Positions 64-6,984 of a DNA stretch of 6,984 nt are shown here, one piece after another. The translations under genes were made by a program, and so were the position numbers. Position 1 is the first letter of the stretch; every line of letters begins with the position of its first letter. The stretch comes from a virus (taxonomy: Duplodnaviria > Heunggongvirae > Uroviricota > Caudoviricetes): IMG/VR virus record IMGVR_UViG_2663763286_000013, positions 1 through 6,984 of that record, one strand, 5' to 3'. The notes beneath the pieces are model-generated. The model made no database searches, was not told where the DNA came from, and saw nothing but the letters and a program-made list of their open reading frames with translations.

Positions 64-127
64 TATTAGCTCCTTCTGATGCCATTCTATTTCAGGAAGG
101 AGTGTCCGTTAAACTCAGGCTACCTCA
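1..127 (-). mobile_element. Left-hand IS3-family insertion sequence, terminal part (IR and orfA leader); outer end near 127
   Basis: Read on the minus strand from 127, the sequence starts TGAGGTAGCCTGAGTTTAACGGACAC, i.e. the 5'-TG terminus typical of IS3-family ends, about 64 nt upstream of the orfA ATG. The exact boundary is inferred, not proven. Confidence 0.55.
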
Positions 128-372
128 CTCTGGTATCTCGCGGTCGCGTAACGGCCCTAGAGGCGAATGCACAGGGAACATCCGGGATTCAGCTGTATGA
201 GGCATACAACAATGGCTACCCTTCCACCTATGGCAATGTGCTTCACCTTAAAGGTGCCACCGCTGCTGGCGAAGGTGAGTTATTCATTGGCTGGAGTGGC
301 ACGAGCGGTGACCATGCGCCCGTACATATCCGTTCGCGGCGTGATACTGATTCTGCCAACTGGTCTGAATGG
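128..372 (+). pseudogene. Upstream (N-proximal) fragment of the tail-fibre gene, cut by the IS and out of frame with the downstream part
   Basis: Frame 1 is open from 70 and encodes protein-like sequence (…[53 protein letters not shown]) up to about 372, then becomes low-complexity. Frame 0 is closed by TGA at 309-311 and 366-368 and only becomes tail-fibre-like from 369. Its upstream end abuts the IS terminus. Confidence 0.4.
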
Positions 373-1418
373 CGCAGGTCTATACGTCAAAAGATTCAAT
401 TCCCGGCGTCAATGCCAAAGGGGATCAGGACACCTCTGGTAATGCGGCTACAGCGACCAAGTTGCAGACAGCATGTACTATCAATGGCGTCTCGTTTGAT
501 GGTTCTACTGATATCACTTTAACCGCTGCGCATGTTGCTGCTTTTGCCAGAAGAGCAACGGATACGTATGCCGATGCGGATGGTGGCGTTCCCTGGAATG
601 CCGAATCAGGCGCTTACAATGTCACCCGCTCTGGCGACAGCTATATTCTGGTTAACTTCTATACCGGAGTCGGAAGTTGCCAGACCTTGCAGATGAAGGC
701 GCATTACAGAAATGGTGGTCTGTTCTACCGTTCTTCAAGAGACGGTTATGGTTTTGAGGAAGACTGGGCAGAAGTTTATACCTCGAAAAATCTTCCACAA
801 GAAAGCTACCCAGTCGGCGCACCAATCCCGTGGCCATCAGATACCGTTCCGTCTGGTTATGCCCTGATGCAGGGGCAGACTTTTGACAAATCTGCCTACC
901 CGAAACTTGCAGCCGCTTATCCGTCAGGCGTGATCCCTGATATGCGTGGCTGGACGATTAAGGGCAAGCCCGCCAGCGGTCGAGCCGTATTGTCTCAGGA
1001 ACAGGACGGCATTAAATCGCACACCCACAGCGCCAGTGCATCCAGTACGGATTTGGGGACGAAAACCACATCGTCGTTTGATTACGGTACTAAAACGACC
1101 AGTTCATTTGATTACGGCACAAAAACCACGAATAGCGCTGGAAATCATTCACACAATATACCTGTTGGTCACACTGGCGCGGGGAATGGTGTATCAGCCG
1201 GTTATAACGCTGCGTTAGGTACTGGTACCACGTCGAGCGCAGGCGGGCATGCTCACAATGTATATATCGGTGCCCATAACCACACTATCGGCATTGGTGC
1301 TCATGCCCATTCTGTCATTATTGGTCCCCACGGACACACCATCACCGTTAACGCTACGGGTAACGAAGAAAACACCGTAAAAAACATCGCATTTAACTAT
1401 ATTGTGAGGCTTGCATAA
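369..1418 (+). CDS. Phage tail fibre protein, C-terminal (distal, receptor-binding) part; probably a fragment of a disrupted longer gene
   Basis: 349-aa ORF with tail-fibre hallmarks: [12 protein letters not shown]…[15 protein letters not shown], a Gly/Thr/Ser-rich region, His-x-His repeats ([33 protein letters not shown]) and the C-terminus [11 protein letters not shown]. Its stop overlaps the start of the next gene (TAATG at 1416-1420). Confidence 0.8.
1056..1130 (+). repeat. Imperfect 30-bp tandem repeat (about 2.5 copies) inside the tail-fibre gene, encoding [10 protein letters not shown] repeats
   Basis: Codons 1056-1085 and 1086-1115 both encode [10 protein letters not shown]; 1116-1130 encodes GTKTT. 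Read directly from the sequence. Confidence 0.8.
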
Positions 1419-1996
1419 TGACATTCAGAATGAGTGAACAATCACGGACCATAAAAATTTATAATCTACTGGCCGGAACCAATGAGTTTATTGGTAAAGG
1501 TGATGCATACATTCCACCTCATACAGGTCTGCCTGCAAACAGTACCGATATTGCCCCGCCAGATATTCCGGCTGGCTTCGTGGCCGTTTTCAACAGTGAT
1601 GAGGCATCGTGGAATCTCGTTGAAGACCATCGGGGAAAAACCGTCTATGACGTGGCTTCCGGCGACGCGTTATTTATTTCTGAACTTGGCCCATTACCGG
1701 AAAATGTCACCTGGTTATCCCCGGAAGGGGAGTTTCAGAAGTGGAACGGCACAGCCTGGGTGAAAGATGCAGAAGCAGAAAAACTGTTCCGGATCCGGAA
1801 GGCGGAAGAAACAAAAAACAGCCTGATGCAGATGGCCAGTGAGCATATTGCGCCACTTCAGGATGCCGTAGATTTGGATATTGCGACGGAGGAAGAGGCA
1901 TCGTTACTGACTGCATGGAAGACATATCGGGTATTGTTGAATCGTGTTGATACAGCAGTAGCAGCGGATGTTGAGTGGCCAGTCGCCCCGCAATAA
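1418..1996 (+). CDS. Tail fibre assembly protein (Tfa, chaperone, lambda Tfa / Mu U family)
   Basis: 192-aa ORF translationally coupled to the tail fibre (ATG overlaps its TAA), with GAGG about 9 nt upstream. The C-terminal domain …[50 protein letters not shown] is the conserved Tfa C-terminal motif. Confidence 0.9.
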
Positions 1997-2039
1997 AAAG
2001 ATAAAGCCATCGATAGAAATATTGATGGCTTTATGTACT
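1997..2039. terminator. Bidirectional intrinsic terminator between the convergent tfa and acetyltransferase genes
   Basis: Perfect 9-bp stem aaagccatc (2003-2011) / gatggcttt (2024-2032) with a 12-nt loop. On the minus strand the hairpin is followed by AUCUUUUUAUU; on the plus strand by a weaker U-rich stretch. Confidence 0.55.
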
Positions 2040-2612
2040 CTATTTATACAATACAACACCGCTCTTTTTAGTAATATATGTGCAGTTCGATGGTATATCT
2101 TTATTTATAAAAGACATTGCACCTATTTTTACATTATCCCCAATTTTACGTGATAATCCAATGATGCAACAATTAGCTCCGATATCAACGTTGCTACCAA
2201 TTTTTACTCTTGAACCAGGTATGTCACCATCTATCTGTCCAATGGTCGTATTCTGTCGTAACACCAGATTTTCACCAGCATCAACAGCAAAATGAACAAC
2301 AATTCCAGCATGATGGGGAATTGTTAACCCTTTTCCAATATTTGCGCCCAATCCAATTTCACAACCAAATTTGTTAATTATTTTACTGTTTAACTTTTTG
2401 GCTGCTTTCTTATGTAATTTATTACCATTAATATGCATTTCATTAGCCAATCTCCACCAGAAAAGGAAATTCCGATTGCGCTGCCTCTTCTCTCTTAATA
2501 GTCGCCAAACATCCATTTTTTCACGCCTGATGACTTCAGCCATCCAATAGCTCAATAGAGCTTTTGAATTCCCAAAGATGACAAAGTGAATAGCTATTAA
2601 GTAACATAACAT
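2040..2612 (-). CDS. Hexapeptide-repeat (left-handed beta-helix) O-acetyltransferase, serine acetyltransferase (CysE)/WcaB-like; start codon uncertain
   Basis: 190-aa ORF containing …GCEIGLGANIGKGLTIPHHAGIVVHFAVDAGENLVLRQNTTIGQ… followed by further [LIV]-G-x-x-x-x hexapeptide repeats. AT-rich codon usage unlike the flanking phage genes. Both candidate starts (2612 and the internal ATG at 2543) have weak SD sequences. Confidence 0.7.
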   Translation of the reverse strand: MLCYLIAIHFVIFGNSKALLSYWMAEVIRREKMDVWRLLREKRQRNRNFLFWWRLANEMHINGNKLHKKAAKKLNSKIINKFGCEIGLGANIGKGLTIPHHAGIVVHFAVDAGENLVLRQNTTIGQIDGDIPGSRVKIGSNVDIGANCCIIGLSRKIGDNVKIGAMSFINKDIPSNCTYITKKSGVVLYK

Positions 2613-3100
2613 ATTGCAACTGCCTATATTTTTGGTTTCTATGGTTATATATCGACATTATAATTAAAACAATAAGCATCAGTGTGTTACTGCGTTCCTG
2701 CTAAACTAAACCAACGCACAATGTAAACACAAATATTAATTTTAAACTGAGCACTAAAGGGATGTCAATATTGTATTGATAATAAGTTGCAAGATTGCCA
2801 CTACTTTCTGTATTTTGGGATGCAATAATTTATATTTTATCTATTCAGTGTTTCTTTGGGCTTATTAAGGATGTCATTATTAATTTATGGCTTGCCATTT
2901 CTATACATATCTGTTAAAAATTTTGATTTGTCTATTGAAAATAGATTTAATTGATTGATTTAATTTTTACATGACGCTCTTTAATATAACTTCAGGTATA
3001 TTAAAGCACATGCATTATATCCAGAGAAAATTAACAAAATTGTTAGCCCTTATTTGTTGGGATTATAGATATTAATTAAGGCCCGATCCCGGGCCTTTCC
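2613..3100. other. AT-rich non-coding spacer; presumably holds the acetyltransferase promoter
   Basis: No ORF of 60 aa or more on either strand. Very AT-rich with short direct repeats (e.g. gatttaatt twice around 2945-2970). Function not determinable from sequence alone. Confidence 0.3.
3078..3097. terminator. GC-rich hairpin just downstream of the minus-strand tfa-relic stop codon; possible terminator remnant
   Basis: aaggcccg (3078-3085) / cgggcctt (3090-3097) form an 8-bp stem with a 4-nt loop. No clean U-tract on either strand, so confidence is low. Confidence 0.3.
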
Positions 3101-3337
3101 TCATTCCGGCTTTTCGGGAAACGTTACTGGAAGGATGGAGGTATCCGTGGATTCGACTTTCTGCGCATAGAGAATCCACTCGGTTAATTTTTGTTTACCC
3201 TGAACGGAAATAATGCCTAGCCGTAACTGTGAGTCCCAGAGCTGAGTTTTATCCCTGACGAGTTGTAGCAGGCTTTGCTTTTCTTTTTCCGCTTGTTGTC
3301 TTTGCATGACCGGTTGAGAAGTTACTTTGCATACCAT
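3101..3337 (-). pseudogene. Relic of a second tail fibre assembly gene (C-terminal domain only; U-prime-like), opposite in orientation to the intact tfa
   Basis: The minus-strand ORF ends …MQRQQAEKEKQSLLQLVRDKTQLWDSQLRLGIISVQGKQKLTEWILYAQKVESTDTSILPVTFPEKPE, which aligns with the C-terminal domain of the plus-strand Tfa (K-SL-Q…L-D…W-Y…V-T…WP-P pattern). The upstream part of the track ORF 3101-3598 is antisense to the holin-like gene and is not credible coding. Confidence 0.6.
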
Positions 3338-3365
3338 TACCTCCTGACAACGTAGGAGGGAACTT

Positions 3366-3695
3366 GTGCTTGACACACAGGAATTAGCTCCAGTTGCTAT
3401 TGCGCTCCTGCTTTCAGTAATTGGTGGGATAGGCACGTTCCTGATGGATGTCCGAGACGGTCGCCAGTCTGGCAATTTGTTGGGATTGGTTACGGAGATC
3501 TTTGTTGCAGTGACAGCTGGCGCGGTGGCGTACCTATTGGGGCAACACGAGGGCTGGGAGTTATCAATTACGTACTTAATGGTAACGATAGCCAGCAATA
3601 ACGGTCATGAGGTGATTTCAGGGATGAAACGAGTGAATATCGATAGCATTCTGAATGTTCTTACAAGTTTGGTGAAAAAGGGAGGCGGGAAATGA
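3366..3695 (+). CDS. lydA: Holin-like small membrane protein (3 predicted TM segments, charged C-terminus); candidate LydA-type holin
   Basis: GTG start preceded by AGGAGG (3354-3359) with a 6-nt spacer. Hydrophobic stretches LAPVAIALLLSVIGGIGTFLM, LLGLVTEIFVAVTAGAVAYLL and LSITYLMVTIA, then a basic tail …LVKKGGGK. First gene of a coupled five-gene operon. The gene symbol is by inferred homology to the P1 darA operon, not by a search. Confidence 0.6.
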   Translation: MLDTQELAPVAIALLLSVIGGIGTFLMDVRDGRQSGNLLGLVTEIFVAVTAGAVAYLLGQHEGWELSITYLMVTIASNNGHEVISGMKRVNIDSILNVLTSLVKKGGGK

Positions 3696-4135
3696 TTGGC
3701 TGGGGTGTATGCGTTCTTGCGTTAGCCTTAGCCGATCGCTATTTGCTAAAACGCAAGGACATCACGCATTTAGAACTTGGTGATGTGGAAATTAAACCGG
3801 GTTTCATCCGGGTGCCGTTCAAATACCGGTCTAAATTCCCGTTTTTGCGCGGCGCAACGGTCAGATATTGGATCCGCGATGTTCAGAAGCCAACGACAGT
3901 GATTGAAGGCGAACAACGTTGTCTGACGTCGGCTGAACAGGGCGAAAACAGTGAATGGTTGTACATACCCACTGAATATATGGGTAAAGGAGAACGGCTG
4001 TGGCATTTCAACGTCATGGTTACGCATGGCGACTCGTTCATTAACCCGTTGTATCGGATTTTCCCTGTTACTCAGCAAATCCGCAGAAGTTACGTAATAA
4101 ATCTCGCACAGGATGTGTCAGATGACGAAAAATAA
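3692..4135 (+). CDS. lydB: Membrane-anchored protein, candidate LydB-type antiholin
   Basis: ATG overlaps the upstream stop (ATGA at 3692-3695), with GGAGG at 3681-3685. N-terminal hydrophobic segment MIGWGVCVLALALA, then a soluble domain. Named by position and size in the inferred darA-type operon. Confidence 0.5.
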   Translation: MIGWGVCVLALALADRYLLKRKDITHLELGDVEIKPGFIRVPFKYRSKFPFLRGATVRYWIRDVQKPTTVIEGEQRCLTSAEQGENSEWLYIPTEYMGKGERLWHFNVMVTHGDSFINPLYRIFPVTQQIRRSYVINLAQDVSDDEK

Positions 4136-4724
4136 GTATGCAACGGTCGATTTTGACCAGGTTAATGAAAAGGGGCTGAAATCCCTTATCGCGGCGATCA
4201 ATAAAACCGGTGTTACGGTAATTGAGGTTGACTCCAGCAACCGCGCAACAACGAAAGATGGCGTTAAAGTTAAAACCGCAAAGCTGGTTCTTAACGACGG
4301 ACAAATTCTTGCCATACAGGTAAACGATACTGGCGATATATCGTCTGTGAGGCTGAATGGAAAAGCTATTCCTAACGCTCAATCGCCGGATATCAAGACG
4401 CTTGGTACCGTCATGGGGCAGGCGGCCCGCAAAAACTCCGCAAAATTCCAGAAATCACTGATCGCCAAAGCGAAACGTGTTGCCAATCCGGTAGACAAGA
4501 AACCGGCAGTAAAATCCAACTTTCAGCGCCTGCAAGAGGCAAAACAGCGGAATGCTCAGGTGGTTGCCGCTTATAAATCAGCGCAGAACTCGGTGTCTTT
4601 CAATCAACAGCAGATCACTGATTTGCGGGCGAAGCTGGATAAGGAGACAGGCCGACTCAATAACGAAAAGGCCCGAAATGGCGAACTCAAACGCCGTCTT
4701 AAGCAACTGAAAGCAGGAAATTAA
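4122..4724 (+). CDS. hdf: Hdf-like protein (homologue of a fragment of the downstream large protein) with a C-terminal coiled coil
   Basis: Probable start at the ATG at 4122 (AGGA at 4109-4112); the track ORF starts at 4113. Shares a conserved block with the next gene (…DGQ-I-I…TLG/AQV-M…KNSAKFQ followed by a Lys-rich coiled coil). The KNSAKFQ-coding 21-mer at 4430-4450 matches 5329-5349 at 19/21 nt. Confidence 0.55.
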   Translation: MTKNKYATVDFDQVNEKGLKSLIAAINKTGVTVIEVDSSNRATTKDGVKVKTAKLVLNDGQILAIQVNDTGDISSVRLNGKAIPNAQSPDIKTLGTVMGQAARKNSAKFQKSLIAKAKRVANPVDKKPAVKSNFQRLQEAKQRNAQVVAAYKSAQNSVSFNQQQITDLRAKLDKETGRLNNEKARNGELKRRLKQLKAGN

Positions 4725-4725
4725 C

Positions 4726-6645
4726 ATGGAACAGTTCAATATCAATAAAGGGGTGACGATCAAGCCTGGGCTTGACGTGCTTCCCCCGCCAGTGACTGAT
4801 GATGAATATCGCGCATTAATGGCCGGTGAGGACCGCTATCTGATGACGGAATCCAACACCCTGGAGGAAATCGAGGCTACGTTCTTCTATGACACGCCGA
4901 TCCACTGGTGTGCTACGGATTTACTGGAGGCGATTAGTTCTACTCGTTTGCAGTTACACCGGACCATGCAGGCATTTGTCCGGGCATTGAACCAGAAGCT
5001 GAATGGTACCGGAATCTCTGCGGGGAGTGATAAAACGGGGGATGTGGCCCAGAGCGGCGCGCGCGCGATCGGCGGAGCTGAAATTGGTCGGGCACGTAAC
5101 GTTAACGGGCTGTCGGTCCTGCCAGCCATTATTCCGCTCAGTGATGGTCAGACTATCAGCATTTTGTTTCATAGCCCGACAGCGGAAAACCGGATCACCA
5201 ATAGCGATACGCTGGTTGCTTTCCAGTTCTTACTGAATAAAAAAGACGTTACTCACACCGTTGCTCCGATGAGTGGACGTGATATGACGCTGGCGCAGGT
5301 CACCATGAAACTTGCCAACCTTGCAGAGAAAAACTCGGCAAAATTTCAGCGTGCGCAGAAGAAGAAAAAAGCCCTTGTTGATGAAATAACCCAACTACAG
5401 GCTGACAGTGACCAGAAAGAGGATGCCATGAGCGACCTCGTGGATCAGGTGGCAGCGGTAGAAGGGCAGAAGGTAGATCTGGAGCAGAAAATTAACGCTG
5501 TTGCATCGGAAGCGGATTCTCTTTATGAAGAGAATGAGCGTTTGCAGACGGAGATTGATCAGCTCAATCGAACTGGTGGGCGCGAAACCATTGCTCCTGC
5601 GGGGATGACTGGTGGACACTCTCGCGCGATGACGGATCGCCTTGCAAGTATCAAAAATCGTATGCATATGAACGGGGAAGTGACGCTCAGTAATGGTGCA
5701 TCAATGAAGCAATTCATTGAGGACGGTGAAGGGTATATCCAGTTAACCGATTCGGATGGCAGCGTGTACATGATCAAGGCTAAATCCATACAGGGTGTGG
5801 ACATGGCAGATGCGATCGGCAAGCTGTTTAAAGCCTATAAAGCGGGTAATGTATCGGAATACCTAGTCCAACCAGAAGAACATAAACCGGAAAACGTCGA
5901 ACCTGAACCAGCGGAGGATACCGGTAGCTCTTCGCCTGAACCAGAAGTCTCTGTAGGTGCATATCGATATGCCCTGCAAATGCGTCCGGCGGCCCCTGGC
6001 GCAATACCTGAAGGTAACAAAGCAATTCTGCCGCGCCCTGATGAAGGTGACCCGTATTATGAATATGCACGCTACGGCATTGCTACTTACGATACCCCGC
6101 TTTCTGATCAGCAAATGAGTGAGTACGACCTGAAGTTATTGCCTCGCGAGGATTCTTTCGACTTCCTGGCGAAGACACTTACTAATGGTCCGTTTGGCAA
6201 ATATGCACAAAAAGCTCTGGAGCTGGCCACCAGCTCACCAGACGAGTTCCGCGTAATGCTGAAAACTCAGTTTCAAAAAACTTTCCCCAATATTGCGTAT
6301 CCGGGGGGCGCTGGCACCGAGAAAATGGTGCAGAGCATGATCAATGCATTGCAGGCCGAAGTCGGTGAGATTACTCAGCCAGAACCTGCCCCGGCACAGC
6401 CTGATGAAACGGTTAGCGAAGCAGATGCAGAGGCTAATAAAGCCATTGAATATCTCAATAACGTGATGGATATGCAAAGCACTGACATGGCGGAGATCCG
6501 TAACGCCCGGGGTAATGTCCGGGAAGCGATTGCAGCCCTTCAGGCTGCCGGGCGTTTTGAGGAAAACGAAGAGCTGGTTAATGGCGCTGCTCGCCACCTG
6601 GCTGATCTGCTGGTAGCAATCCAGAAAGCGGGGGTAGCGGCATGA
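4726..6645 (+). CDS. darA: Large DarA-like protein (639 aa): candidate capsid-packaged antirestriction protein
   Basis: ATG at 4726 with AGGA 7 nt upstream, immediately after the upstream stop. Has a central coiled coil (…ALVDEITQLQADSDQKEDAMSDLVDQVAAVEGQKVDLEQKINAVASEADSLYEENERLQTEIDQL…) and acidic Pro/Glu-rich linkers. Its N-proximal region is paralogous to the preceding gene. Assignment to DarA is an inference from operon architecture and size. Confidence 0.55.
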   Translation: MEQFNINKGVTIKPGLDVLPPPVTDDEYRALMAGEDRYLMTESNTLEEIEATFFYDTPIHWCATDLLEAISSTRLQLHRTMQAFVRALNQKLNGTGISAGSDKTGDVAQSGARAIGGAEIGRARNVNGLSVLPAIIPLSDGQTISILFHSPTAENRITNSDTLVAFQFLLNKKDVTHTVAPMSGRDMTLAQVTMKLANLAEKNSAKFQRAQKKKKALVDEITQLQADSDQKEDAMSDLVDQVAAVEGQKVDLEQKINAVASEADSLYEENERLQTEIDQLNRTGGRETIAPAGMTGGHSRAMTDRLASIKNRMHMNGEVTLSNGASMKQFIEDGEGYIQLTDSDGSVYMIKAKSIQGVDMADAIGKLFKAYKAGNVSEYLVQPEEHKPENVEPEPAEDTGSSSPEPEVSVGAYRYALQMRPAAPGAIPEGNKAILPRPDEGDPYYEYARYGIATYDTPLSDQQMSEYDLKLLPREDSFDFLAKTLTNGPFGKYAQKALELATSSPDEFRVMLKTQFQKTFPNIAYPGGAGTEKMVQSMINALQAEVGEITQPEPAPAQPDETVSEADAEANKAIEYLNNVMDMQSTDMAEIRNARGNVREAIAALQAAGRFEENEELVNGAARHLADLLVAIQKAGVAA

Positions 6646-6782
6646 CACTATCAGCTATTGAGTTAATGGATCTCAGCGATAAGTTGGATGCTCTGATGTC
6701 CAAAGCGGCTACCGCGAGTGGCATGGAGTTGCTGGATATCAGCGATGAAATTGACCAGATCATGCAACAGATGGGGTACTGA
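6642..6782 (+). CDS. Small ORF (46 aa) coupled to the DarA-like gene; possibly a 3'-truncated ddrA-like gene whose stop codon is supplied by the IS end
   Basis: ATG at 6642 overlaps the upstream TGA (ATGA). Encodes MTLSAIELMDLSDKLDALMSKAATASGMELLDISDEIDQIMQQMGY, with an internal 14-aa duplication. Its stop TGA (6780-6782) is the first three bases of the IS inverted repeat TGAACCGCC. Below the ORF-track length cutoff. Confidence 0.5.
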   Translation: MTLSAIELMDLSDKLDALMSKAATASGMELLDISDEIDQIMQQMGY

Positions 6783-6867
6783 ACCGCCCCGGGTTTCCTG
6801 GAGAGTATTTTATCTGTGAACTCTGAACCGCCCCGGGTTTCCTGGAGAGTATTTTATCTGTGAACTC
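6780..6867. repeat. Perfect 44-bp tandem duplication of the IS terminal inverted repeat
   Basis: 6780-6823 and 6824-6867 are both tgaaccgccccgggtttcctggagagtattttatctgtgaactc. The repeat starts with the IS3-group terminal motif TGAACCGCCCCGGG. Confidence 0.9.
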
Positions 6868-6984
6868 AGGCTGCCAGATCATTATTTCCGATGGAAGCAT
6901 AATAAGCTTTTTCTGCTTCTGCCGGAGGAATATGGCCCAGCCTTTCCAGCAATCGTCGATTGTTATACCAGTCCACCCACGTTA
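6824..6984 (-). mobile_element. Right-hand IS3-family insertion sequence (IS629/IS3411-like end), right inverted repeat plus orfB 3' end; continues beyond the window
   Basis: Terminal sequence TGAACCGCCCCGGGTTTCCTGGAGAG is an IS3-group-type inverted repeat, immediately followed by the stop of a minus-strand transposase orfB. Confidence 0.75.
6866..6984 (-). CDS. IS3-family transposase OrfB, C-terminal fragment (gene start beyond window end)
   Basis: Reverse complement of 6866-6984 translates …TWVDWYNNRRLLERLGHIPPAEAEKAYYASIGNNDLAA then stop (complement of tca at 6866-6868). This is the conserved C-terminal tail of IS3-family integrase-type transposases. Confidence 0.8.
   Translation of the reverse strand, partial: TWVDWYNNRRLLERLGHIPPAEAEKAYYASIGNNDLAA

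Follow-up and report, generated by a model that had tools for sequence, protein, structure and literature searches.

A stretch of 6,984 nucleotides of Caudoviricetes DNA, IMG/VR record IMGVR_UViG_2663763286_000013 (the window, here always the whole stretch), carries an AT-rich island whose single gene encodes a 190-residue acetyltransferase with a left-handed beta-helix (LbH) and the fold of the serine acetyltransferases (SATs). Positions 127-6779 of the window are, as judged from database matches, a piece of a P1-like (Punavirus) phage-plasmid, with 99.4% identity to phage vB_EcoM-Ro157c2YLVW and 99.7% to P1-like plasmids of O157:H7, and all matches begin at 127 and finish at 6779. Within this piece the island separates the tail-fibre assembly chaperone gene U, a tfa gene, from a relic of the tail-fibre assembly gene U'. 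Its G+C content is 0.323 (1997-3100), compared with 0.505 to the left (127-1996) and 0.499 further to the right (3366-6645); the acetyltransferase open reading frame (ORF) stands at 0.351 (0.30 at third codon positions) and the non-coding DNA of 2613-3078 at 0.273. Since the convergent U and U' genes of P1 are only 28 bp apart, the roughly 1.1 kb found here is extra DNA. The gene is closed off by a hairpin with 15-nt arms that are 93% complementary (-17 to -20 kcal/mol, z-scores of -4.6 and -6.2), after which AUCUUUUUAUU follows on the acetyltransferase transcript. The original prediction for this DNA had described about 1.1 kb of AT-rich sequence amid phage-typical genes, a convergent acetyltransferase gene with its own terminator and a long non-coding stretch, and had read the whole as a horizontally acquired moron. 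This description was right: the G+C content of 32% is set against about 50% on either side, the 190-residue ORF and its hairpin are in place, about 470 bp are without a credible ORF, and the unit is AT-rich, mobile, made up of a single gene with its own terminator, and missing in P1. The accompanying proposal, that the island had taken the place of tail-fibre genes, was wrong and is discussed below.

The leader DNA upstream of the gene occurs in 65 of 5426 complete E. coli genomes, always on a plasmid and never in a chromosome, a sensitive BLAST search included. No ORF of more than 40 residues is found in 2613-3100, where most ORFs start with TTG. Both hexamers of a candidate sigma-70 promoter (Table 1) are kept in four P1-like variants with up to 6% difference. 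The hairpin that follows the stop codon of U' is kept in JL22 and in O26 and O103 plasmids and contains the lone GATC (Dam) site of the island. There are no tandem repeats in 1900-3400, and an Rfam scan of the island gave a single sub-threshold match, to cyano_tmRNA (12.8 bits, E 0.82), which touches the leader. Antisense to the promoter region of the acetyltransferase gene lies a strongly hydrophobic ORF of 40 residues (2795-2917, plus strand), which was considered as a possible type I toxin and set aside, as it has a TTG start and no ATG, and the segment found no match.

Table 1. Features of the island and its surroundings, with window positions and strand
Feature	Positions	Strand	Remarks
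P1-like (Punavirus) segment, S-U-[island]-U' relic-lydA-lydB-hdf-darA	127-6779		Insertion-sequence (IS) DNA on either side, 1-126 and 6780-6984
Tail-fibre gene S, C-terminal part	369-1418	+	Collar and gp37_C domains (Pfam PF07484 and PF12604)
Fibre-tip/tfa/terminator/acetyltransferase cassette	775-2604		Common to chromosomal P2-like prophages
Tail-fibre assembly chaperone gene tfa/U	1418-1996	+	PF02413 Caudo_TAP, E 3.5e-42
AT-rich island, 32% G+C	1997-3100		Between the stop codons of U and U'
Hairpin terminator, bidirectional, between tfa and the acetyltransferase gene	2001-2034		U-tract after the stem on the minus-strand transcript
SAT-fold LbH acetyltransferase gene, 190 residues (phrog_2154)	2040-2612	-	ATG start; convergent with tfa/U; public label 'serine O-acetyltransferase'
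AT-rich non-coding leader, 27% G+C	2613-3077		About 470 bp; confined to P1-like plasmids
Candidate sigma-70 promoter, TTGACA-18 nt-TAAAAT	2739-2768	-	About 130 nt upstream of the ATG; 11 of 12 positions match
G+C-rich 8-bp hairpin	3078-3097	-	Directly after the U' stop; weak z-score, -1.4 to -1.8
Tail-fibre assembly gene U', relic	3101-3304	-	Last 67 codons and stop; PF02413 on the C-terminal part only
Junction of 2.9-kb deletion	3304-3306		Removed the 5' part of U', Sv', cin and lydC
P1 late promoter LPdar, kept	3319-3337	+	-22 box AAGTTACTT, -10 TACCAT; identical to the elements annotated in P1

The product is a hexapeptide-repeat LbH acyltransferase of a CysE/WcaB-like clade, as had been proposed. 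In the AlphaFold2 model (pLDDT 83, pTM 0.80), five helices (residues 2-82) are followed by a beta-helix, and the best 50 Foldseek matches in the PDB are all SATs, with TM scores of 0.52-0.70 (most of them 0.6-0.7). When the family profile is searched against PDB chains, SAT chains (E 9e-24) come ahead of LacA, Maa, LpxD and GlmU, and hexapeptide-repeat structure, on which the original prediction depended, is thus present at the level of LbH structures. The Pfam Hexapep model reaches 24 bits on the window protein, for a cut-off of 27, and many of the listed homologues carry a precomputed PF00132 (Hexapep) assignment. The protein is 100% identical to that of phage vB_EcoM-Ro157c2YLVW and belongs to PHROG 2154, for which the function entry reads unknown. 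Of the columns in an alignment of 44 family members, 15 are invariant, among them those of a WWR motif and of RQNTTIG. The ratio of nonsynonymous to synonymous substitution rates (dN/dS) between P1-like and P2-like copies is 0.04-0.23, and from this low ratio, together with the identity to the protein of an isolated phage, it follows that the gene is under purifying selection. Shorter starts at M24 and M33 (the JL22 gene is annotated with 158 residues) were considered and ruled out, as homologues conserve the N-terminus and a canonical Shine-Dalgarno sequence precedes the long start in the P2-like copies.

Although CysE is the best match by sequence, profile and fold (PDB 6wye/7ra4, 4n69 and 1t3d), sharing the helical N-domain and the LbH, the phage enzyme does not appear to belong to the cysteine pathway. 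Its catalytic histidine, H100, is conserved in at least 90% of the 44 members and aligns with the histidine of the CysE 'DH' pair, and catalytic histidine and acidic partner are both kept; this partner is E86, a position with Asp or Glu in every sequence shown. In contrast, the 'DH' aspartate of CysE aligns with Pro99, a variable position that is never acidic in the sequences shown, and the Arg-His of CysE 'DRH' aligns with positions that vary in the family. These correspond to Asp157, Arg192 and His193 of E. coli CysE, which we take to be serine- and cysteine-contact residues (numbering and roles after the published CysE structures); three of the five serine-contact residues that were checked are absent or not conserved. 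CysE tails that end in isoleucine bind CysK, whereas the phage protein ends in …VLYK and lacks this final residue. It is also shorter (190 residues, compared with about 270), with a much reduced N-domain, and is phage-encoded at 35% G+C. The NCBIfam models are all missed by a wide margin, with 70 bits for EpsC (cut-off 150), 59.6 for cysE TIGR01172 (210.65), 54 for WcaB (196) and 35.6 for the E. coli CysE model NF008349 (397), so that the phage protein reaches 36-60 bits where the CysE models ask for 210-397. The last of these scores also separates it from the CysE orthologue of the host, a grouping named beforehand as contrary to the prediction. Because the curated cut-offs are missed and the CysE residues are not conserved, 'serine O-acetyltransferase' is a label for the fold and not an assignment of substrate.

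The gene does not travel alone. The idea that it was inserted by itself is not supported, as fibre tip, tfa and acetyltransferase gene adjoin one another in a cassette common to P2-like prophages: positions 775-2604 give one unbroken alignment, with 95.2% identity, to the P2-like prophage of the O104:H4 strain C227-11, and comparable matches are found in prophage Sp13 of O157:H7 Sakai (ECs_2638), in strain 55989 and in O26 and O111. Identity is about 98-99% over 875-2474 and falls off steeply across the 45 opening codons of the acetyltransferase gene, 41 of the 87 differences falling in 2475-2604, before the homology ends at codon 3. The sequences upstream of the ORF are unrelated in the P1-like and P2-like contexts, the P2-like copies having a TTGAAT-17-TATAAT promoter-like motif, an AAGGAG Shine-Dalgarno sequence and a GTG start; the 190-residue frame is kept across contexts in spite of this difference. 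In P2-like prophages the gene comes after the tail operon and is co-directional with it. The tfa genes of the window and of the O104:H4 prophage differ by 4 nt. That of an O103 P1-like plasmid is identical to the O104:H4 copy, whereas the adjoining acetyltransferase genes differ at 62 positions, which suggests repeated recombination within the cassette. The cassette is mobile between P2-like and P1-like phages, and the acetyltransferase gene is present in 530 of the 5426 complete E. coli genomes, mostly in the chromosome.

The loss of tail-fibre DNA beside the island is a separate event. Window positions 3304 and 3306 correspond to positions 6350 and 9228 of the JL22 locus, with 2877 bp missing relative to JL22, and 49 of the 5426 complete E. 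coli genomes share this junction (O157, O111 and O26 plasmids). JL22, whose acetyltransferase is 98.4% identical in protein to that of the window, has the same island in the middle of its Cin-invertible C segment, with U on one side and a complete U'-Sv'-cin-lydC on the other. As the island thus coexists with intact U', Sv' and cin, and as the junction is outside the island (200 bp to its right), insertion and deletion were distinct, and the idea that the island replaced part of the tail-fibre region falls. With cin lost, tail-fibre switching is frozen in the deleted lineage. The tfa relic of the original prediction is real and shorter than its mechanical ORF of 165 residues (3101-3598, minus strand): homology to U' of JL22 stops at 3304, and the ORF overruns the junction into DNA antisense to the promoter and start of lydA (3366-3695, plus strand). 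A public coding sequence for a 78-residue 'tail fiber assembly protein' likewise overruns it, U'-derived DNA being limited to 3101-3304. The deletion ends 13 nt short of the -22 box of LPdar, which stands before lydA. In JL22 the S stretch equivalent to window positions 127-507 is present twice in inverted orientation (3001-3389 and 8050-7669); these copies are the C-segment inverted repeats common to Sv and Sv', and the window holds one of them.

The reading that we favour, and hold with middling confidence, is lysogenic conversion, in which the moron would provide a soluble SAT-fold O-acetyltransferase with an acceptor other than serine, acting on a sugar of an envelope glycan, with the core of lipopolysaccharide (LPS) as the leading candidate. 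In this reading, the island is a gene that stands alone, with a terminator and probably also a promoter of its own, placed in a slot downstream of, and convergent with, tfa. Its product is predicted to be a cytoplasmic, acetyl-CoA-dependent and, on the analogy of known LbH enzymes, presumably trimeric O-acetyltransferase with a short helical N-domain, an LbH and a His/acid catalytic dyad. We infer that the gene is expressed in the lysogen, where the enzyme would acetylate the acceptor sugar while the glycan is assembled on the cytoplasmic face of the membrane, and that this would alter the surface met by the host and by phages, those with the linked fibre included, with a possible effect on their adsorption. 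The functional suggestion of the original prediction, receptor modification or superinfection exclusion, is plausible as a hypothesis and gains some support from the conserved synteny with tfa and from the LPS-core surroundings of chromosomal homologues.

This proposal agrees with the recurring linkage to tail-fibre genes, with the binding preferences of the fibres and with the precedents of phage-encoded surface acetyltransferases. Fibres of the P1, P2 and Mu types commonly bind the LPS core. A convergent tfa gene lies 19-90 bp downstream of the acetyltransferase gene in 67 of 80 IMG/VR loci; among the loci with at most 69% identity it is found in half (10/20), down to 42% identity, with tfa itself falling to about 34-38%, and the same layout is seen in Hafnia phage yong2, Citrobacter phage phiNP and E. 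coli phage 613R2 (EcoM-613R2). In a chromosomal survey of one genome per species (77 loci), tfa occurs within 4 kb in six loci, adjoining and convergent in all six, and at least 13 homologues have LPS-core-type genes within 4 kb, namely genes for GT9 heptosyltransferases, WaaP-like kinases, GT25 and pseudaminic acid and one HldE-like gene. The lineages concerned are Orbaceae, Mixta, Pantoea, Halopseudomonas/Pseudomonas, Dechloromonas and Pelagadaptatus, and in a neighbour-joining tree without support values fibre-linked and LPS-linked members are interleaved within Orbaceae, and the clade of the window protein neighbours the LPS-linked pair from Mixta and Pantoea. In Candidatus Pelagadaptatus (locus 2577-6565), the start of a homologue with 44% identity lies 3 nt within the end of the HldE-like gene, which serves ADP-heptose synthesis, and the homologue is followed by an AT3-SGNH (OafA-like) membrane acyltransferase, so that two unrelated types of acetyltransferase share one LPS-core neighbourhood.

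The closest functional precedent is NeuO of prophage CUS-3, a soluble LbH O-acetyltransferase that modifies the K1 capsule (polysialic acid) of the lysogen (PMC3046976). NeuO comes from another LbH subfamily and is missing from the 60 best PDB-chain matches listed in the profile search; it is phase-variable through 5' heptanucleotide repeats, in contrast to the acetyltransferase locus described here, which is without tandem repeats. The Oac, GtrC and OafA-type enzymes (Sf6, P22-like phages, BTP1) have the role proposed for the island enzyme, as conversion cargo that acetylates the phage's own receptor glycan and limits superinfection (PMC7067206, PMC3630932). They are integral-membrane proteins of the AT3 family, some with an SGNH domain, of unrelated fold and usually encoded near int/att, whereas the island enzyme is soluble and would need intermediates in the cytoplasm as its acceptors. 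WcaB (colanic acid) and EpsC, whose acceptor is presumed to be a sugar, are among the best NCBIfam matches and resemble the phage protein in size (models of 146-168 residues), SAT-like core, 'HH/H-G' catalytic motif and 'IRxxxTIG' turn. The phage gene differs from these in lying outside any wca or eps cluster, among phage neighbours, in scoring below their cut-offs and in having the invariant motifs WWR and RQNTTIG of its own family. As a type of cargo, the island recalls the sopE cassette, reportedly described by Mirold et al. in 2001 at the end of the tail-fibre operon and common to P2-like and lambdoid Salmonella phages: in both cases one gene of atypical composition sits beyond the tail-fibre genes, on their downstream side, and has passed from one phage family to another that is unrelated. 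Here, however, the cargo is an enzyme and not a secreted effector, and the fibre tip and chaperone moved along with it.

A more specific version of lysogenic conversion, tentative and in our judgement unlikely, is that fibre tip, chaperone and enzyme form a 'bind-and-mask' unit, in which the enzyme O-acetylates the LPS-core sugar bound by the linked fibre and lysogens become refractory to phages with that fibre type. That such protection would extend to any lysogen with the cassette, on a P1-like plasmid or in a P2-like prophage, is equally tentative. In intact P1-like elements the unit is inside the Cin-invertible segment, and inversion would flip the gene between sense and antisense relative to late tail-fibre transcription.

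Several observations weigh against lysogenic conversion by glycan acetylation. The acceptor is not readable from the sequence, our literature search found no experimental study of this acetyltransferase family, which is only mentioned as cargo, and the authors of the JL22 report write that it is not known why the gene is there (PMC9603915); a paper on Citrobacter prophages lists it only as 'fitness' cargo (PMC6456863). The linkage to tfa could be hitch-hiking, as the site beyond tfa serves as a general slot for cargo and may be no more than permissive: lambdoid phages whose fibre tip and tfa are about 92% identical have other cargo there, a YbcY-like gene or an invertase, and other phage homologues of the enzyme lie at a prophage end near int. 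The LPS seed proteins of the survey were picked after the data had been seen, about 58 of the 77 chromosomal homologues are neither fibre- nor LPS-linked, and the neighbour-joining tree is without support values. Homologues also follow transporter genes, of the POT family in eight Rahnella species and MFS_2 in Mixta, where stop and start overlap, an order that resembles the LacY-LacA arrangement. With respect to expression, promoter-like sites in the leader region occur at chance count, which leaves the site at 2739-2768 as a candidate only, and the Shine-Dalgarno sequence of the P1-like copy is weak.

The transporter-adjacent homologues suggest the main rival, a LacA-like role. Here the enzyme would be cargo unrelated to adsorption that acetylates a small molecule, either in LacA/Maa-like detoxification of a non-metabolisable sugar or in metabolism, including serine acetylation. 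It would adjoin tfa only because the end of the tail-fibre operon is a permissive slot, whose contents are carried along when tail-fibre cassettes are swapped. We consider this possible, though doubtful. It would account for the alternative cargo found beside the 92%-identical tfa, for the homologues that come after transporters and for the many that are orphan islets, and the closest solved structures are indeed SATs. For serine as the substrate, the non-conserved contact residues, the widely missed equivalog cut-offs and the altered C-terminus argue otherwise, and against small-molecule cargo in general stand the tfa linkage, which is kept across 42-100% identity and several phage types, and the LPS-core neighbourhoods in at least five lineages.

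A role in defence or counter-defence, in which acetylation of a phage or host component would block a competitor inside the cell, is improbable. Defence hotspots are known from temperate phages of the P2-like and P1-like types (PMC9122126, PMC13586616), the gene occupies variable cargo positions in such phages, and it adjoins an abortive-infection family gene in ESSI2_ev040 and hicAB in phiNP. Against this, the PADLOC-DB 2.0 models gave no match at E values up to 1, the two P2 hotspot papers mention no acetyltransferase, and the protein is a single small enzyme without a sensor or effector partner, whose chromosomal relatives are in LPS-core loci and not in defence islands.

Modification of the virion, in which receptor binding would be tuned by acetylation of the tail fibre or of its chaperone as the particle is assembled, is very improbable. 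It draws on the tight adjacency to tfa in divergent phages and on the co-directional position after the tail operon in P2-like prophages. However, the gene is convergent with the fibre operon and hence not co-transcribed with it, many homologues are at chromosomal loci unrelated to phages, and, since lambdoid phages have the same fibre tip and tfa without the acetyltransferase, the enzyme is not needed to build the fibre. To our knowledge, no LbH enzyme acetylates proteins. Equally remote is the reading of the gene as a non-functional passenger that is decaying within the fragment of a dead prophage. The surroundings are degraded (IS DNA at both ends, S truncated and frameshifted, cin deleted), and public copies include some with a frameshifted or partial annotation. 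Yet the ORF is unbroken, with 100% identity to the one in an isolated phage, dN/dS is well below 1 and the family is conserved, with its 15 invariant columns in 44 sequences.

As a class of feature the island is ordinary, a phage moron, and its enzyme is widespread, uncharacterised and apparently mis-annotated. About one in ten complete E. coli genomes has the gene, including the O157:H7, O26, O111 and O104:H4 outbreak lineages, and it is annotated everywhere as 'serine O-acetyltransferase', a label that the residue-level evidence does not back. If the enzyme does acetylate the LPS core or a different glycan of the envelope, it would count as a lysogenic-conversion factor that is widespread but has been overlooked, and it could alter phage susceptibility, with relevance to phage therapy and phage typing of Shiga toxin-producing E. 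coli, and possibly antigenicity; if it acetylates a small molecule instead, it would be routine phage cargo. The locus also illustrates how tail-fibre host-range cassettes and their cargo move between P2-like, P1-like and lambdoid phages.

Beyond the island, the first 126 and last 205 bases of the window are IS DNA. An IS3-family OrfA begins on the reverse strand of 1-66 (MSRKTQRYSKEFKAEAVRTVL), and 6780-6984 is an IS1203/IS629 end, of which the first 44 nt (TGAACCGCCCCGGG…GTGAACTC) are doubled in tandem. With IS DNA at both ends, the P1-like piece is IS-bracketed, and S and ddrA are cut; this exact arrangement is absent from all records of the phage, plasmid and complete-E. coli collections. 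The frame of S is also broken by a 1-nt deletion at 370 relative to NC_050153, which splits it into ORFs 79-522 and 369-1418. Truncated by IS DNA at 127 and frameshifted, the fibre gene is predicted to be defunct in the window, whereas the acetyltransferase ORF is intact.

Among other loci, phages PhiR30_1 (locus 4186-4854) and Turner (4149-4739) have a YbcY-like gene or a DNA invertase gene convergent with tfa. A hok/gef-like ORF of 46 residues (locus 4662-4803) lies about 200 bp upstream of a 56%-identical homologue, where another E. coli prophage ends beside copA. In the window, a tRNA scan found no tRNA, and the sole match in an Rfam scan of its whole length is RF02111 ('IS009'), which aligns in full to 1761-1959 on the plus strand with 192.7 bits (gathering score 117). 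The match is wholly within the intact coding sequence of tfa/U, and RF02111 appears to model a fragment of the tfa gene and not an independent small RNA.

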